Origin: Promethearchaeota archaeon
GTDB taxonomy: Archaea; Asgardarchaeota; Lokiarchaeia; Sigyniarchaeales; SOKP01
Assembly: GCA_048938855.1 (NCBI GenBank)
Contig: JBHLLT010000050.1
Location: 1 to 11,807 of the forward strand
Length of the DNA stretch: 11,807 nucleotides
Direction of reading: 5' to 3'
Made by a program: the position numbers and the translations under genes. Of the stretch, positions 2,088 through 11,807 are shown one piece after another. How positions within the stretch are numbered: the stretch's first letter is position 1; the number at the start of each line of letters is the position of its first letter. The notes below the pieces were generated by a model, which worked only from the letters and a program-made list of their open reading frames with translations, was not told the origin of the DNA and searched no databases.

Positions 2088-3929
2088 TTATGTTTCTTCG
2101 TCAGATTTGATTAAATCTTTCTTATCCTCATCAATATTAACTTCGTGTTCGATTTCATATTTCTTCGCATCATCTACATCTTTTCTCATAAGGATTTCTC
2201 TTCGAGATGCTACGTATTTATTAGGTTTAAATTTTAGAACTGGTATTCCTGTATAAATCCAGCCAGGTTCAAGAACTTGGTCAGTTGTAGTAGTGGAAAT
2301 TGCACCAACTATTGTTTCTTTACCTATGATTGTTCCGGGTACAATAGTTGTATGGCCTCCGACCATTACATAATCATCAAATATTACTTTTTTAATGATT
2401 AAATATTTGCCAATCACCATAGAAGACATAATTGTTGCTCCCTGACCGATTAAGTTTTTCCTGCCAAATTTGATGAATTCACCATCGCACCAAGTATCGT
2501 TAAGATGACTGGACATATCCATGTTAATCCCAAATAATTTAAAAACAAGTACATCTAACCATGGAAATGGAGAATATCGCATAAACCATAAAACTATCTT
2601 TTTTAATTCAGTTCTTAACATCCAGAATTCAAAATCCTTATCACCAATCTCAGCTTTAAATACACCTTCTTTAGGTTTATGGATTAAATTAATGAGAATT
2701 AAGAACAACCAGCAAAAGAGCATACAGGAAAAAATAAAAAAATAAATTGAACCAAAAATGGTAAATGGAAGAAATAAAATAACAGTTAACCAATTTCCTC
2801 CAGAAAGATACCAATACCAAAATATTGAAATTATTAAACCTGATAGCCAAAAAATAGGGATATAAACAGCAAGAAATTTCAAATTTACTCTACTGATAGC
2901 AGAACTTGTAGCAAAATCAATTTCTAGATCTTTTTCTGTTAAACTTTCAACATCTATTGGAGTTTCGGGTAATTGATTAATCAATTCTGGAACAAATTGT
3001 TTTCTTTCTTCAAGTTCTTTAGCTTTTAACTTATTTAATAAATCTTTATGCATATATCCTTTAATATTTTCGTTTTTCTCTAAGTCTTTTACTGTTACAC
3101 CTAGATATTTAATCAATTTTTTTCTAAATATGCGTCTTAATGGCATACCCCAATAATAATTGATTTGATCAGGTTTCCCTATAATACTGTGCTTGGTCGC
3201 GCATGCTAAGGGAAGCATATATGAATTATCCCGAACTTCGCACCCTGGTCCAATTAAATTCGTTGTCGCACCAGTAACATTGTCACCTACTTTAACTTTA
3301 AAATACGAGATATTTCCGAATATCCCTTCCACTACATGAGTTGCGAAGGCAGAGTTTACTCCTAAATAACAATTTTCCCCAAATTCGAGAAATTTATCAT
3401 TTACAACAGATTCCTCTAAGACGGTTCCTTTCCCTATTTTGCTTGTCCCTACAAAATTAAAAAACCAATTACTCAACCAAGGAAAAACTCCTTTATTAAA
3501 TGCATTTTTTCCATATTTAATCATAAACCCTCGAATATGATAATAATTTGCTGCTCTGCTGCTAATATTTCGCGGAATTATTCCTTCTTTTGATGGGGAT
3601 ACTTTTTCAGATATTTTCCAAAAGATTTTAGTAGATATTCCTATGAGAAGCAAATGTAGTAAATAGCAACCAATTAGAACAAAGGGCATTAAAAGAAATG
3701 TAATTAAGGGCTCCAATTGAAAAAAAATAAGGAAAAAATTCGTTGTTTCTAAAAAAATTGGAATAAAAAATTGAAGAAAATACCAAAAAAAGAAAACACC
3801 AGGAACTACCCATGAACTATAGAAAATTATGAAAAAAATAAAAATGTAAATATGATATTGGAGTTTTATCTCTTCCTTTATTATCCCGTCAGGATTTCTT
3901 GACTTTTTTTTTTCTGGTTTTTCAGTCAT
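2088..3929 (-). CDS. Membrane protein with two [2TM + hexapeptide-repeat LbH acyltransferase-like] modules
   Basis: 613 aa. Hydrophobic helix pairs near residues 25-100 and 350-415, each followed by a (P/S)KEG motif, hexapeptide repeats (IGKGTV, FGENCYLG, VGDNVT; FGRKNLIG, IGKETIVG) and a terminal YxGxP. Module 1 has THVVEG (His198). Confidence 0.85.
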   Translation of the reverse strand: MTEKPEKKKSRNPDGIIKEEIKLQYHIYIFIFFIIFYSSWVVPGVFFFWYFLQFFIPIFLETTNFFLIFFQLEPLITFLLMPFVLIGCYLLHLLLIGISTKIFWKISEKVSPSKEGIIPRNISSRAANYYHIRGFMIKYGKNAFNKGVFPWLSNWFFNFVGTSKIGKGTVLEESVVNDKFLEFGENCYLGVNSAFATHVVEGIFGNISYFKVKVGDNVTGATTNLIGPGCEVRDNSYMLPLACATKHSIIGKPDQINYYWGMPLRRIFRKKLIKYLGVTVKDLEKNENIKGYMHKDLLNKLKAKELEERKQFVPELINQLPETPIDVESLTEKDLEIDFATSSAISRVNLKFLAVYIPIFWLSGLIISIFWYWYLSGGNWLTVILFLPFTIFGSIYFFIFSCMLFCWLFLILINLIHKPKEGVFKAEIGDKDFEFWMLRTELKKIVLWFMRYSPFPWLDVLVFKLFGINMDMSSHLNDTWCDGEFIKFGRKNLIGQGATIMSSMVIGKYLIIKKVIFDDYVMVGGHTTIVPGTIIGKETIVGAISTTTTDQVLEPGWIYTGIPVLKFKPNKYVASRREILMRKDVDDAKKYEIEHEVNIDEDKKDLIKSDEET

Positions 3930-3979: not shown

Positions 3980-4930
3980 TTAGATGTTAAATCCATCATC
4001 TATATCATCCCATTCTTCTGTAGCAAGATCGAATCTTTTCTTCTCTTTCTCTTTCTTTTCTTTTTTCATCTCACGGCGATCTTTACGTGTTAATTCATCA
4101 TATCGCCGAGTATACATTTGCTCATATTTTTCTCTCAAGGCTTCAACATCTTCAACATGCCCGATTTTATCTTCTAACCCATCTTCAAAAAAATAGTTTC
4201 TTTTAAACTTTTTAGCTGGAATTCCAGCATAAATATAACCTTTTTCTAAGTCTTGTCCTACAGTTGTTACTGAATTTGCTGCTAGGATACAATTATATCC
4301 AATATGAGTTCCAGGCATAACTATTGCATGTGACCCTATTCGTACATTATCCTCAATAATCGTTTTTCTGATTATTAATAGATTCCCTATTATCACTGCA
4401 GATTGTACAATCGCTCCCTGTCCTACTACGACATCTTTCCCGAATTCTATAAATTCAGTATCGACCCAGCCTTCAAATAAAGAATTGCTAATTTTTGTTT
4501 TTACTCCAAATGTCTTAAAGCATATATTATCCATAATCCCTGGGAATGGAAATCTATGAGCAAGCCAAATTGGCCAACGTTTAATAGTATTTCTTAGACT
4601 CCAATATTGATAATCACGATCTTCTGGAACTCTTAAAAATACTCCTTCTCGGGGTTTATGTATTGCATTAACAATAAGTAGAAGGAGTTTAGCAAAAAAA
4701 ATTCCAGAAAATATAATTGTTATATACATTAAAACACATAAAAGTGGAAGGAATGTATAAAAATGAACTGGTCTATCATATCTCCACAAAAAATGCCAAT
4801 ACGTCCATAACTCTAAGAGTAAAGGTATGATGCTTGCCCATATCAGGAAAAAGTAAAATAGTAAATAACTTTTCTTTACTAATACAGTTGGTGTAAATGG
4901 ACCAACCCTCATAGTATTAGGAACGCTCAA
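3980..4930 (-). CDS. Membrane protein with a single [2TM + LbH acyltransferase-like] module
   Basis: 316 aa with a TTG start and GAGGT about 10 nt upstream. Two TM helices, HKPREGVF, hexapeptide repeats (FGKDVVVG, IEDNVRIG, IGYNCILA), YAGIPA and a charged C-terminal tail. Clearly homologous to module 2 of its neighbours. Confidence 0.85.
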   Translation of the reverse strand: MSVPNTMRVGPFTPTVLVKKSYLLFYFFLIWASIIPLLLELWTYWHFLWRYDRPVHFYTFLPLLCVLMYITIIFSGIFFAKLLLLIVNAIHKPREGVFLRVPEDRDYQYWSLRNTIKRWPIWLAHRFPFPGIMDNICFKTFGVKTKISNSLFEGWVDTEFIEFGKDVVVGQGAIVQSAVIIGNLLIIRKTIIEDNVRIGSHAIVMPGTHIGYNCILAANSVTTVGQDLEKGYIYAGIPAKKFKRNYFFEDGLEDKIGHVEDVEALREKYEQMYTRRYDELTRKDRREMKKEKKEKEKKRFDLATEEWDDIDDGFNI

Positions 4931-5219: not shown

Positions 5220-5615
5220 ATGAAAAATCTATGTGAAAATTGCGGAGAGTGTTGTATAGGAACAGAAATGATATTATCTCCTCACGACATTGATTTAATA
5301 ATAAAATATTATCCGAATAAGATAACCAAAAAACAGTTTGTATTAAAAAATGAAGATGGTAATTATCAAATCAAAAATGTTGAAAATCACTGCGTATTTT
5401 TAGACTTATCAACAAAAAAATGCAAAATATATAAAAATCGTCCTCAAGGATGTAGATATTATCCTCTTATATACGATTTCCAAAAAGGTAAGTGTACCTT
5501 TGATAAAGATTGCCCTAGAACTCATTTATTTTATCAAAATAGGAGGATTTTAAATGAAACGTGTAAAAATTTAAAGGATTTTATTAAGGACCAATTAAAA
5601 TTTGTTTTAGATTAA
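5220..5615 (+). CDS. YkgJ family (CxxCxxCC) cysteine-cluster protein, putative Zn/Fe-S binding
   Basis: CENCGECC, CVFLD, CKIYKNRPQGCRYYP and a later CxxxxxCP. The stop overlaps the stop of the convergent gene (5612-5615). Confidence 0.9.
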   Translation: MKNLCENCGECCIGTEMILSPHDIDLIIKYYPNKITKKQFVLKNEDGNYQIKNVENHCVFLDLSTKKCKIYKNRPQGCRYYPLIYDFQKGKCTFDKDCPRTHLFYQNRRILNETCKNLKDFIKDQLKFVLD

Positions 5616-7378
5616 ACAAGATCTTTTTTATCTTCTTCAACATTAATATCTTGATCAATTTCAAACTTCTTTTCTTTAATAACGTCTCTCTTTATTATTT
5701 TATCGCGACGTTGCTCTGCATATTTATTTTTCTTCAATTTGACCACAGGCATTCCAAAATACACCCATCCTGGTTCTAAAACTTGATCATATACACTATA
5801 TGATAGGGCTCCAACTAAAGTGTCTTTTCCTATAATTGTACCTGGTACAATCGTGGATTCCCCTCCAACAAGAACGTAATCTCCAAATATAACTTTTTTA
5901 ATAATAAGATATTTACCAATAACCATCGAAGACATAATTGTTGCTCCCTGACCAATTAATACTCTCCTTCCGAAATGAATGAACTCAGTATCACACCAGG
6001 AATCATATAAAGCACAAGAAAGACTCATGTTTATGCCAAACCATTTAAAAACTAATATATCCATCCACGGTAGGGGCCAATTTCTTACAAGCCATAATAC
6101 AATTTTCTTTAATTCTGTTCTTAAGCACCAGAATTCGAAATCATGGTTACCTTTTTCTGCTTTAAAAACTCCTTCTTTTGGTTTATGAATTAAATTTATT
6201 AAAGTTAGAAATAATTTACTAAGGAATAGACATCCTACAATAAAGATAAACCACAAAATAAATATCATAACTGGGAGAAAGAAGACAAACAATATTCCAT
6301 TTATAGCATAAAAAGAATAGACATAAAATATTATGGCATCCAACATTCCTGAAAGCCAAAAAATTGGGATATAGATAATTAAAAATTTTATATTGATTCG
6401 GCTTATTGCGCTACTTGTGACAAAATCAATAGCTAAATCTTTATCTTTTTTTTCATCTAGGACTTCTTTAACTGTTTGGGTTGGTTCAAGATTTTCTGCT
6501 ATTGGGTTTAAAGTTTCTGGATCTATTTTCAGATAGTTTTTCACATTTCTTTTGGATACTTTGCTTAAGGGTCTGGCACCACTTGAAAAATAATAATTCT
6601 TTCCTTGTAGTAAACTATGTTTTGGAGTGGAAGCCATAGGGAGTAAAATTGCATTATCTTTTATCTCAGTACCAGGAGCTATTAAGTTTACTGCTGAGGC
6701 AGTAACATTGTCTCCCAGTTTAACCTTAAAATAGGTAATATTTCCAAAAATTCCATCAATCATATGACTAGAAAATGCTGAATTAACTCCGAGATAGCAA
6801 TTTTTTCCAATCTCTAAATATTTATCATTAACTACAGATTCCTCTATGGTAGTACCTTTCCCTATTTTGCTAACCTTCATAAAATTATAAAGCCAAGGTG
6901 TCAACCATGGGAATAATCCTTTAGAAAACGCATTTTTTGGGTATTTTAATATAAAAGATCTTATGTGGTAATAGTTTAATGTCTTACTTGGGAAGTTTCT
7001 AGGGATAATCCCTGGTTGAGATGGAGATTTTTTTTCAGTTAAAGCCCAAAACAAGCGAGCAATAAAACCAATTAGAAATAATCGAAGTAAATAACACCCT
7101 ATAATAACTAAAGGCATAGTTATTAGTGCTATAAGAGGTTTTAAATCAATAAAAATTGAAAAGACGTTTGGTGATTCTAAAAATGAAGGTATAAAAAAGA
7201 AAAAAAAATAAGTCATGAAGAAAATAGCGGGAGTCAAATTTGAAATTAAATATATTGTAAATAGTACAAAAAGATACCAAAAGTATTGGAATTTAACGTC
7301 TTCTTTAATAATTTTTTTTTCGGAACCTTTTTTACGGACGATTGTTTCAGATTTTTCCATATCAATCCTCGGAATCAT
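5612..7378 (-). CDS. Second two-module [2TM + LbH] membrane protein, paralog of 2088-3929
   Basis: Collinear with the 613-aa protein: GIIPRN, YYHIR, EESVVNDK, SHMIDGIFGNI, TSSAISR, HKPKEGVFKAE, and an identical IGQGATIMSSMVIGKYLIIKKVIF. The true start may be the ATG at 7360 (MEKSET), which has GAGGA just upstream. Confidence 0.85.
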   Translation of the reverse strand: MIPRIDMEKSETIVRKKGSEKKIIKEDVKFQYFWYLFVLFTIYLISNLTPAIFFMTYFFFFFIPSFLESPNVFSIFIDLKPLIALITMPLVIIGCYLLRLFLIGFIARLFWALTEKKSPSQPGIIPRNFPSKTLNYYHIRSFILKYPKNAFSKGLFPWLTPWLYNFMKVSKIGKGTTIEESVVNDKYLEIGKNCYLGVNSAFSSHMIDGIFGNITYFKVKLGDNVTASAVNLIAPGTEIKDNAILLPMASTPKHSLLQGKNYYFSSGARPLSKVSKRNVKNYLKIDPETLNPIAENLEPTQTVKEVLDEKKDKDLAIDFVTSSAISRINIKFLIIYIPIFWLSGMLDAIIFYVYSFYAINGILFVFFLPVMIFILWFIFIVGCLFLSKLFLTLINLIHKPKEGVFKAEKGNHDFEFWCLRTELKKIVLWLVRNWPLPWMDILVFKWFGINMSLSCALYDSWCDTEFIHFGRRVLIGQGATIMSSMVIGKYLIIKKVIFGDYVLVGGESTIVPGTIIGKDTLVGALSYSVYDQVLEPGWVYFGMPVVKLKKNKYAEQRRDKIIKRDVIKEKKFEIDQDINVEEDKKDLV

Positions 7379-9246: not shown

Positions 9247-10890
9247 TTGATTGCATTGAATTTCTTCGATTTTGATTTAGGAGTTCAAAACATATTCGAT
9301 AAGCAATTTTCCAATATTCCTTCTACAGACTGGAAAAAATGGCTTGATATATCTTCAAAAGAAGAGTATGAGGATCTTAGTTTAAGAAATTCTGGATTAT
9401 CATCAATTGATGATATATTTGGGAGGATATTAAAAGATAAACTAAATTCGAAATATCTATCTGTTGAACGACATAGTTATTTAGAGAAATATAAGGGATC
9501 TAGAACTTTAATTATATGTCACAGTTCAGGTACCACGAATAGCGATTTAGCTGCCCTTAAATGGCTCCCTATGACAGAAAAAATCATTCAACATTATTGG
9601 GCTCCAGGAATGCAAGCTATCTTCGAATCAAGTGGACTAAATAGAAAGAGTTCAGTAATAATATTTGTTCCATCCCGAATTAAAATAGACGGGCTTCAAT
9701 CATACCAGGGTCAAGATTACATTTCATTATATTCATCAGAGTTTTCGCAAAGAGTCATGCTTTCAATAATAAAACCCCTTTCCTATACTTTTTTTGAATA
9801 CAAAAATTCAAAGAATTTAGACGTAATATCAAAAATCCTTAGTTTAGATAATGTTTCTGTTATTTCTGCTCCAGCGATCACTATTTTAGGATGGGCAGAT
9901 TTGGAAAAGTTTCAGATAGGAATAAAAAAATCATTAGAGAATTTACCAAAAGAAAAAAGCTCCCTTCTTGAAGAATTACTAGTAATTATAAAAAAGGAGG
10001 GTGTTGAGAAAGGGGCTAAAATTATCCAGGCAAAATTATCTGAAAAATTTTCTAAAGCAACAATTATTTTTAGTATTAGTTCCCTTTCAGAACAAAATTG
10101 GATACTTATCCGTAAATTTATGAAATGGCAAAAAGGAAAAGAAAAATTTACGAATCTCTATGTAGCATCAGAGATTGGGCCATTTGCGGCTAGTATCTCA
10201 AAAGGAGATTATGAACTTTCTCGTTTAAATAGAATGTATGTTTTTCCATTAACATTAGCTGTTCTTGAATATAAAAAAAAAAGAAATTTAATATCAAATT
10301 TTTCAGATCAGATAGGAAGGCTTTATGTTTCACGAATGGGAGATTCTGGAGCTTTAATAAATATTGATATTGGAGATATTATTACTATTAAAAAATCAGA
10401 GGGATTGCCTCAAATTGATGGGACTATCATTAGATCAAGTTTTGAATTAAAATATAATGTAAAATTATCCGATAATATTAAGAAACCAGATAAATATAAT
10501 ATTTCAGCAGGAGACTTTTTCTCATTTGATAACTTTAATATAAGTCATCCAAGAAATTTATTGCATTGTTTGAAACGTAGCTGCAAATTAGAAACCGATG
10601 CTCTACTGTTAATTCAAGAATCGAATCAATCTTGGAAATTAATATTACCGTCAAATTTAGATGAGAAATGTTTTGATGATAAAATTATAGAAATTATATC
10701 GAAATGTCCAACTCAAAAGGAATTATATCAAGCAATTGTGAATAATTTTATAAAAATTAATTTTATTGAAGATCAACCAATTGATTTCTTAGCCACACGA
10801 CAAGAGATTTTGAAATTGGTGCGTAATGGGCAAAAGCCTAAAGGAATACTAAAAAAATGGCCGTTATATGTCATGTCAACCTTAAAATAA
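9247..10890 (+). CDS. GH3-like / ANL-superfamily adenylate-forming enzyme (acyl-AMP ligase)
   Basis: P-loop HSSGTT (SSGTT at 9523-9537) followed by KWLPMT (GH3-type KxxPxT), YVASEIG, DIGDII and a Lys-containing C-terminal GQKPKGILKKWP. Start is uncertain (TTG 9247 or in-frame TTG 9256). Confidence 0.7.
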   Translation: MIALNFFDFDLGVQNIFDKQFSNIPSTDWKKWLDISSKEEYEDLSLRNSGLSSIDDIFGRILKDKLNSKYLSVERHSYLEKYKGSRTLIICHSSGTTNSDLAALKWLPMTEKIIQHYWAPGMQAIFESSGLNRKSSVIIFVPSRIKIDGLQSYQGQDYISLYSSEFSQRVMLSIIKPLSYTFFEYKNSKNLDVISKILSLDNVSVISAPAITILGWADLEKFQIGIKKSLENLPKEKSSLLEELLVIIKKEGVEKGAKIIQAKLSEKFSKATIIFSISSLSEQNWILIRKFMKWQKGKEKFTNLYVASEIGPFAASISKGDYELSRLNRMYVFPLTLAVLEYKKKRNLISNFSDQIGRLYVSRMGDSGALINIDIGDIITIKKSEGLPQIDGTIIRSSFELKYNVKLSDNIKKPDKYNISAGDFFSFDNFNISHPRNLLHCLKRSCKLETDALLLIQESNQSWKLILPSNLDEKCFDDKIIEIISKCPTQKELYQAIVNNFIKINFIEDQPIDFLATRQEILKLVRNGQKPKGILKKWPLYVMSTLK

Positions 10891-11023
10891 AAAGAGATCT
10901 AATACCCAACTATCAAAAATAATTATATTTAAAGTTCAATCTTCAATTTTGAAAGACTAAATTATTTAGGAATGCGAATTTTTTCCTATTTAAATTATTA
11001 ATAAAAACTGAAGTGAAATCAAA

Positions 11024-11500
11024 ATGAAAGATAAATTCAATTTGGTTGGCACAAAAATCGAACAGTTTAGTTTACCAAATTCTAGAGGCGAAACAATCAA
11101 TATTAGAGACTTAGAAAATAAAAAAAACGTAATACTTATATTATTTAGAAATATAAATTGACCTTTTTGTCGATGGCATGCTGCGAGGTTAAGACGGGAT
11201 CTTGAAAAATTTGAAGAATTGGATGGGTATTTGTATCCAATTTTAGTGGATAATGAAAATAATGCAAAAAAAATGGAACAGAAATATGCTAGAAAGTACG
11301 CTATATTTTATGATGAATCAGAAAAAGTAGCCAAGATGTTAAAACAAGAAATAAGATGGATAAAATTTGGTCGTATGCCTGGATTATTAGTAATTGATAA
11401 GAAAGGGATCATTCAATATGCCTATTACGGTAAGAATATGCATGATATACCAGAAAACAATGAAATTTTAAAGGTTCTTGAAAAAATTAATGAAGTTTAA
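11024..11500 (+). CDS. Peroxiredoxin-like (AhpC/TSA, thioredoxin fold) probable selenoprotein with UxxC motif
   Basis: ATG 11024 (preceded by GAAGTGA) is in frame with the listed 11219-11500 ORF. It reads MKDKFNLVGTKIEQFSLPNSRGETINIRDLENKKNVILILFRNIN-TGA(11159-11161)-PFCRWHAARLRRDLEKFEELDG...MPGLLVIDKKGIIQYAYYG..., 158 aa. The TGA falls exactly on the first Cys of the CPFC motif. Confidence 0.88.
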
Positions 11501-11501
11501 G

Positions 11502-11569
11502 GATTTGGAGGGAATAAAATAAAAAATGTGAGATTTTATTCTTTAAAGTTAGCCACACTTTTCCAAATC
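11502..11569. repeat. Intergenic stem-loop element, copy 2 (3' UTR of the selenoprotein gene)
   Basis: gatttgga 11502-11509 pairs with tccaaatc 11562-11569. Inside, either gaataaaat/attttattc (11512-11520/11533-11541) or gtg/cac (11528-11530/11556-11558) can pair. Core motif aaagttagcca at 11545-11555. Confidence 0.5.
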
Positions 11570-11625
11570 AAATTTTTATTTAACTCAAATATCCGAAATT
11601 TATTAGACTCGAAATTTTAAAAAAT

Positions 11626-11805
11626 TTAAATTGATTTTAATCCAATTGGGTCTTTAATTTGTCTAAATTTATAAATAAGTTGATCTTTTGCTATAACTCC
11701 ATCCCATCCTTTAGTTTTTTCAAAACCGTGTACAGATAGGAAATTTTCTGAGTATTTACCACGAGCAGATTTGACCATTTGATTAATAATTTTATTTCTC
11801 AAAGT
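11626..11805 (-). CDS. 3' end of an unidentified gene entering from beyond the window
   Basis: Open minus frame from the window edge: TLRNKIINQMVKSARGKYSENFLSVHGFEKTKGWDGVIAKDQLIYKFRQIKDPIGLKSI*, with TAA at 11628-11626. The other two minus frames stop at once. Confidence 0.65.
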   Translation of the reverse strand, partial: TLRNKIINQMVKSARGKYSENFLSVHGFEKTKGWDGVIAKDQLIYKFRQIKDPIGLKSI

Positions 11806-11807
11806 AT

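Follow-up and report, generated by a model that had tools for sequence, protein, structure and literature searches.

A PrxL selenoprotein gene of a Promethearchaeota archaeon and the three-armed RNA without an AUGA/GA core that follows its stop codon

The gene and its in-frame UGA codon

The window analysed in this study is a stretch of DNA of 11,807 nucleotides from a Promethearchaeota archaeon. Near its end, on the + strand, lies a gene (11024..11500) of 158 codons plus a TAA stop, whose product has an AhpC/TSA (BCP-like peroxiredoxin) fold. Directly upstream of it, on the same strand, is an open reading frame of 547 aa (9247-10890, +), for which no Pfam family was found at E <= 0.001. The gene starts with an ATG at 11024, and its frame is broken solely by a TGA at codon 46 (11159..11161, +). 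In the read-through translation this codon falls within the motif N-I-N-U-P-F-C-R, where the UGA, read as selenocysteine (Sec, U), takes the first position of a U-P-F-C redox box. The fourth position is Cys49 (TGT, 11168..11170, +), the presumed resolving partner of Sec46; it is the only cysteine among the 158 residues, and none was found outside the redox box. An initial annotation, made from the sequence alone, had stated that an ORF caller returns just the last 93 aa and that the gene carries a single in-frame TGA and no other lesion. Both statements are borne out by our analysis: the list of open reading frames splits the gene into 11024-11161 (45 aa) and 11219-11500 (93 aa), and reading through the TGA joins them into one intact frame of 158 codons. 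The same annotation had placed the product among the AhpC/TSA-type proteins, in agreement with the Pfam comparison, in which the 158-aa read-through product matches AhpC-TSA (PF00578) over residues 8-132 with an E value of 4.2e-20 and Redoxin with an E value of 2.7e-13.

The selenoprotein encoded here is already known; it is PrxL, a Prx-like thiol:disulfide oxidoreductase (Mariotti 2016; Huang 2024). Loki selenoproteins have been described that resemble peroxiredoxins and contain a CxxC-type redox box with Sec at the first or at both positions and no other Cys (Mariotti 2016, PMC4989117). Among the Asgard archaea that use Sec, 43% were subsequently reported to have Prx-like selenoproteins (Huang, Xiao & Zhang 2024, PMC11227280), and a 2026 review (PMC13188914) lists them as 'Prx-like thiol:disulfide oxidoreductase, PF00578, UxxC, UxxU'. 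The DIN-X-PFCRWHAARLRRD core of the protein in the window was found in the supplementary FASTA of the 2024 study, in the entries Lokiarchaeia_GCA_013375485_U_3, GCA_016839585_U_3 and GCA_019058425_U_2; the motifs KDKFNLVGT, CRWHAA, GRMPGLL and IQYAYYG are present in its Prx-like FASTA, and the same supplement holds related sequences from Sifarchaeia and Jordarchaeia (Huang 2024, PMC11227280). The fold family (PF00578), the UxxC box with Sec in first place and the lack of Cys outside this box are shared with published PrxL, and the protein itself shows no difference from it. The gene is a further instance of an Asgard selenoprotein that is already in the catalogues, and nothing new is learned from the protein; the description of it as a 'hidden' selenoprotein in the initial annotation does not hold, as it belongs to a published family.

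The gene does illustrate two faults of annotation, namely the truncation of such genes and a Trp that is wrongly shown at the Sec site in many public entries. Truncation during annotation is a known fate of PrxL-type selenoprotein genes. Public entries that lie on long contigs are fragments of 88-106 aa, named 'redoxin' or 'peroxiredoxin' and derived from Lokiarchaeota or Promethearchaeota MAGs. Those on contigs of mostly <2 kb are full-length, and all of those inspected except two have Trp in the place of Sec; dozens of such full-length copies with Trp (P0002-P0070) were seen, almost all of them on contigs <2 kb. The Trp is most likely an artefact of gene calling with a translation table in which TGA stands for Trp (table 4). 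Among the public proteins there is also one true Cys homolog (P0071, C-P-F-C, 47% identity) and one Asp form.

Conservation of the UGA codon and the Sec machinery of the genome

A six-frame search for orthologs in 60 relatives returned sequences at 40-90% identity, nearly all of which contain exactly one in-frame TGA. When 30 orthologous loci (47-90% identity) were excised and translated, the TGA was in the same column in 29 of them, with the motif U-P-[F/Y/H]-[C/A], which is far more than chance would give. When the search was extended to 400 genomes of the phylum, matches at E <= 1e-20 were obtained in 103. Full-length matches contain one TGA almost without exception; UxxU forms, of which there are a few, contain two, and only Asp-for-Sec forms are without a TGA at the site. 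The initial annotation had proposed that homologs be inspected for Cys or TGA at this column, and among the 60 relatives, the 30 loci and the 400 genomes the codon found is TGA, rather than TGT or TGC. In a comparison with 16 orthologs of the same genus, third-position changes upstream of the TGA numbered 226, against 92 and 16 at positions 1 and 2, and downstream of it 534, against 166 and 51. The TGA is unchanged throughout these 16 orthologs and the codons next to it vary synonymously (AAT/AAC, CCT/CCA/CCC). Judged by this substitution pattern, both halves of the gene are under purifying selection. TGA also serves as an ordinary stop codon in this genome, where it ends 215 of 1634 long open frames (13%). 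None of the other 8 genes of the window contains an in-frame TGA, and in several orthologs UGA is used both as codon 46 and as the stop codon.

The initial annotation had further suggested that the genome be searched for Sec machinery, and this search was successful. A tRNA-Sec was found at C49:41348-41436 of this genome (G000), scoring 61.1 bits against an Rfam cut-off of 47; ARAGORN likewise reports it as SeC, with the anticodon tca. The gene for SepSecS (463.9 bits) follows 70 nt downstream, and a candidate for the elongation factor EFSec lies about 5 kb from these two genes, the three being clustered within 7 kb (G000:C49:35767-42808). This candidate scores 232 bits against an NCBIfam cut-off of 242, with selB as its best family, and a PSTK candidate on contig C1 scores 133 bits against a cut-off of 290, with PSTK as its best family. 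Both remain below the curated cut-offs; as the NCBIfam models were presumably built largely on non-Asgard sequences, it is nevertheless plausible that they are the orthologs. Two adjacent SelD genes (G000 C34:253707-255755; 183 and 168 bits) contain one in-frame TGA each. What the initial annotation had named as speaking against Sec, a genome without Sec machinery together with homologs that have TGT/TGC, is the reverse of what we find here.

Two explanations that do not involve Sec have to be considered. Seen in isolation, a single TGA one base removed from TGT or TGC could be put down, in a genome assembled from a metagenome, to a nonsense mutation or to an error of sequencing or assembly; the gene would then be a Cys-type redoxin gene that is either a pseudogene or truly has TGT/TGC at this place, and the P0071 protein demonstrates that a true Cys homolog exists. 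However, about 100 assemblies made independently of one another share this TGA, with identities as low as 40%, and it is fixed while neighbouring codons vary within a gene whose two halves are both under purifying selection. A TGA in the same column in about 100 orthologs, selection on both sides of it, the use of TGA as an ordinary stop codon and the presence of Sec machinery lead us to conclude that the TGA is not a lesion, an explanation to which we give practically no weight. It could also be argued that Sec has no part in the reading of UGA, which would stand for one of the standard amino acids Trp, Cys or Gly, be it through a genome-wide code like 4 or 25 or through near-cognate suppression. 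The dozens of full-length public entries with W at the site would be in line with this, and Sec at codon 46 is in our case deduced from sequence. These W entries, however, are almost all on contigs <2 kb and most likely stem from gene calling with table 4, while the same gene on long contigs is called as a fragment of 88-106 aa. In addition, TGA ends 13% of the long frames and is absent from within the other 8 window genes, SepSecS and the EFSec and PSTK candidates, several orthologs use UGA at codon 46 as well as for their stop, and an apparently complete Sec pathway is present together with a SECIS-like RNA, which makes decoding as a standard amino acid very improbable.

Fold and active site of the encoded protein

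An AlphaFold2 model of the protein, for which 45 homologs were used, has a pLDDT of 95.8 and places Sec46 immediately before a helix formed by residues 47-58. The start of this helix is the usual location of the nucleophile in thioredoxin-fold proteins. In a search with the model, the nearest solved folds were the BCP peroxiredoxins 3drn and 3hjp, with TM scores of 0.84-0.88. Aligned with 2cx3, the protein has Sec46 in the column of the Ser of S-P-V-C, Cys49 in that of the peroxidatic Cys and Arg42 in that of the signature Pro; when it is aligned with 3drn, Arg117 occupies the position of the active-site Arg. The protein therefore has the fold of the BCP/PrxQ peroxiredoxins (Sulfolobus Bcp1, 3drn, and Bcp4, 3hjp; Aeropyrum BCP, 2cx3), with Cys49 in the column of their peroxidatic Cys and the active-site Arg kept, but in these alignments the classical signature PxxxT/SxxC is absent and is replaced by RxxxUPxC, with Arg42 for Pro and Sec46 for Thr/Ser, which results in a thioredoxin-like UxxC box. 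The statement in the initial annotation that the TGA sits where the first Cys of CPFC belongs is thus right for the CxxC-type Prx-like subfamily and does not apply to classical peroxiredoxins, in which the Sec column holds the Ser/Thr of T/SxxC.

At orthologous loci Cys49 is changed to Ala or Ser in U-P-x-A variants and to Sec in UxxU variants. Since the U-P-x-A variants retain Sec yet lose Cys49, Sec is the indispensable residue of the two. A sub-branch with U-P-[Y/H]-A or U-P-Y-S (L043, L045, L047, L078-L080 and L091-L093) has kept Sec and lost the resolving Cys, and its members would, going by their sequences, be one-Sec enzymes. Loci of this sub-branch carry the same three-armed RNA that is described below, some with GA directly after its P2 helix. 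The same family includes UxxU forms that have two Sec codons, such as U-G-H-U and U-A-N-U (the second genes of L066 and L067, and L068, L084 and L090); they use the three-armed element without the core as well, and some stand in tandem with a UxxC copy.

A three-armed RNA behind the stop codon

A 68-nt RNA element (11502..11569, +), a putative SECIS, begins 1 nt past the stop codon and forms three arms in its minimum free energy fold. The closing helix P1, GAUUUGG/CCAAAUC, pairs 11502-11508 with 11563-11569 and is followed on its 5' side by the junction AGG (11509-11511). P2 (11512..11541) is a 9-bp helix, GAAUAAAAU/AUUUUAUUC, in which 11512-11520 pair with 11533-11541; it is capped by the 12-nt loop AAAAAAUGUGAG (11521-11532), which matches the apical loop pattern of lokiSECIS elements. 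P3 (11545..11561), a side hairpin of AAAGU/ACUUU, has the loop UAGCCAC, of which the motif UAGCCA is kept across the phylum. Directly after the element the sequence has a T5 tract (11573..11577), which is likely an archaeal transcription stop, and T-rich runs follow the element in most orthologs. In all orthologs the element starts 0-30 nt past the stop codon.

A covariance model, R1, was built on 23 orthologous 3'UTRs and locates the element after the stop codon of 64 PrxL genes; across the whole genome it found no second significant site. In the resulting 64-row alignment, which was fitted to the covariance model and is thereby biased in favour of structure, 94.7% of the cells are paired and 18 of the 21 pairs are changed on both sides. 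None of 500 shuffles of the alignment reached the observed pairing and covariation values, and sliding the pairing partners lowered pairing to 27-54%. At one pair of P3, 14 sequences have G-C to C-G swaps. The same three arms are returned by independent single-sequence folds, and GC-rich orthologs that the model had missed rebuild every helix with other bases, P1 being CCUGGCC/GGCCAGG, GAUGC/GCAUC or UCAAAC/GUUUGA. The P3 loop of all three GC-rich orthologs contains UAGCCA, and several of these divergent orthologs share the AGG junction. The folding energy of 11502-11569 by itself is unremarkable (z -1.9), and the 64-row alignment gave no covariation for a possible tertiary pairing of the junction GG with the CC in the loop of P3.

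The element is absent behind two Asp-for-Sec relatives, namely L048 (G058) and the second gene of L089 (G057:C126:6218-6688), the latter of which stands in tandem with a Sec copy that bears the element. These relatives, which have the motif G-L-M-D-L-F-C and no TGA at that position, are natural negative controls; they come from two genera of one family and do not count as independent. The most distant Sec ortholog (L088, G038:C168; 39% identity) has a 9-bp stem with the 12-nt loop GAUAAAAACGAG, and its side hairpin is located 5' of this stem, not 3'.

Several other approaches and candidates were set aside. Plain MAFFT and RNAalifold on the 3'UTRs recovered P2 alone, with distant rows misaligned, and were replaced by the covariance model. 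Weak R1 matches at C34:296078, C45:40918 and C28:30458 were inspected, and none is behind a UGA gene. A hand-written three-arm descriptor with no core requirement gave 84 matches, mostly spurious, and was dropped. An Rfam scan of 10900-11807 with E values up to 10 gave chance-level matches only (aspC, mir-5360). An alternative hairpin candidate at 11602-11641 was rejected (-3.2 kcal/mol, z -0.2), its structure not being conserved in orthologs.

Comparison with known SECIS elements

The lokiSECIS has been defined as AUGA, a 9-bp stem, an 11-nt loop whose first five residues are adenines and whose last are AG, and a GA after the stem (Mariotti 2016, PMC4989117). The type I eSECIS-like model for Asgard archaea requires GA_[G/A]A (Huang 2024, PMC11227280), and in both studies the AUGA/GA core is treated as the hallmark of Asgard SECIS elements. 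Canonical lokiSECIS elements are present in the genome studied here, behind two VhuD genes, HdrA and a second PrxL gene (G000:C34, FFRGNW-U-SHC). An example reads AUGA-GACUGAGUU-AAAAAAAAUGAG-AACUCAGUU-GA, and a 12-nt loop, AAAAAAAAUGAG, is likewise present in the canonical element on contig C62. Every canonical element of this genome has, in addition, a closing helix and a side hairpin on its 3' side. In the family of the second PrxL, 22 of 30 loci have the strict AUGA...GA pattern and most of the others fail only by extra stem mismatches; two distant loci (31-32% identity) are without such an element.

Like the lokiSECIS, the element in the window directly follows the stop codon and has a 9-bp stem, an A-rich loop that ends in (U/C)GAG, a side hairpin and a closing helix. 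It differs in that it has AGG in place of AUGA and UUUA in place of GA; the junction, of which the 5' strand is the 3-nt AGG and the 3' strand is rich in U, is partly Watson-Crick or wobble paired. While the published PrxL elements follow the AUGA, 9-bp stem, 11-nt loop and GA pattern, the subfamily to which the gene in the window belongs is without this core: AUGA before the stem together with GA or AA after it occurs in 0 of 64 aligned elements, and the region from -600 to +700 nt around 30 orthologs holds no canonical lokiSECIS. With the loose 2024 pattern, a weak fold, (A)UGA-UUUGGUG...UAAUAAA-AA, is matched in 30 of the 64 elements; it conflicts with the covarying helices P1 and P2, and the window does not contain it. 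With euryarchaeal SECIS elements (Methanococcales/Methanopyrus) the element shares the 3'UTR location and an archaeal Sec system with SepSecS and, as a candidate here, PSTK, but their GAA_A bulge and three G/C pairs of the upper stem are absent here, where the upper stem consists almost entirely of A-U pairs.

Discussion

In this study, we revisited a redoxin gene that standard annotation truncates at an in-frame UGA codon. On the basis of the observed conservation of this UGA, which is of the recoding type, the Sec machinery of the genome, the fold of the protein and the covarying RNA that is tied to the Sec copies, we infer that Sec is the residue inserted and that the RNA acts as the SECIS, and we propose a catalytic cycle with a peroxide or a disulfide as its substrate. 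Our reading of the locus is that it holds one PrxL selenoprotein gene of 158 residues, whose UGA-46 is decoded as Sec under the direction of the RNA at 11502-11569 and whose product works through a Sec46/Cys49 cycle; we put its probability at roughly 0.93. The proposal made in the initial annotation, a Sec46 enzyme of 158 aa that is truncated by standard annotation, was supported by every one of its suggested checks that was run.

According to the mechanism we propose, the archaeal elongation factor specific for Sec would deliver Sec-tRNA(Sec) for decoding of the UGA at codon 46, and the recoding would be directed by the three-armed RNA (11502-11569) that starts 1 nt after the TAA. Within a BCP-peroxiredoxin fold, Sec would take the place of the Thr/Ser in T/SxxC. 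By analogy, Sec46, with which the first long helix begins at its N-terminal end, may be the residue that attacks the substrate, a peroxide or a disulfide; Cys49 could then resolve the oxidised selenium to form a selenenylsulfide, which in turn would be reduced by a thioredoxin-type reductant. Arg117, the conserved active-site Arg of peroxiredoxins, is retained. The cycle is drawn by analogy, as PrxL proteins are without biochemical characterization (Mariotti 2016, PMC4989117).

The new point of this study is the three-armed RNA without the core behind the gene, the selenoprotein itself being known. Most likely, by comparison with the canonical elements, it is a functional SECIS; with the AUGA/GA core being absent, this role is based on association and resemblance. 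It might instead be a terminator, or a hairpin that acts in mRNA stability or regulation in this gene family, with Sec insertion directed by some other signal. The lack of the core, the T5 run after the element, its unremarkable folding energy (z -1.9) and the fact that R1 finds it behind this one gene family only could all be explained in this way. On the other hand, no canonical lokiSECIS that could provide such a signal lies within -600 to +700 nt of the 30 orthologs, and every copy of the gene with Sec is followed by the element, its helices preserved by compensatory changes, whereas neither of the two Asp-for-Sec copies is. The stem, loop, side hairpin and closing helix of the element match those of the canonical elements that follow VhuD, HdrA and the second PrxL gene. 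Archaeal terminators, moreover, do not need a three-way junction of such a kind. We consider a role other than that of a SECIS unlikely, albeit less so than the two explanations of the UGA codon discussed above.

With the element taken as the SECIS, it seems reasonably probable to us that the MKDKF-type PrxL genes, from Lokiarchaeia to at least 3 other families of the phylum, use a SECIS without a kink-turn core, whereas other selenoprotein genes in the same cells, including the second PrxL family, keep the core. The determinants would then be the 9-bp stem with an A-rich loop ending in GAG and the three-way layout with its UAGCCA side hairpin. A literature search for kink-turn-less or three-way SECIS elements in Asgard archaea found no description of them, the SECIS assignments in the supplement of Mariotti 2016 and in Table S4 and Fig. 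S10 of Huang 2024 lying outside that search. The view of Asgard archaea as a bridge between the Sec insertion of archaea and that of eukaryotes is founded on the AUGA/GA kink-turn core of their SECIS, and a widespread, covarying SECIS without this core beside canonical ones in one genome would provide a natural experiment on the features that the Asgard machinery reads. It also suggests that pattern-based SECIS searches that demand GA_GA miss or mis-fold a part of the selenoproteome.

Other features of the window

A long hairpin, CCUUUUAG...CUAAAAGG, with an inner GGGUU/AACCC, is located at 1941-2008 of the window, after an aldehyde:ferredoxin oxidoreductase gene that has no UGA. Its folding energy is unremarkable (z about -1). 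That this hairpin is a relative of the three-armed element was not supported, as it has a different layout and is not matched by the SECIS model R1. The window also contains three paralogous genes, all on the - strand (2088-3929, 3980-4930 and 5612-7378). Most of each of the three proteins is without a Pfam match, and there are weak matches to left-handed beta-helix (hexapeptide) repeats near their C-termini. These paralogs also contain internal DNA repeats, at 2839-2940 and 6348-6449, that are 75% identical.
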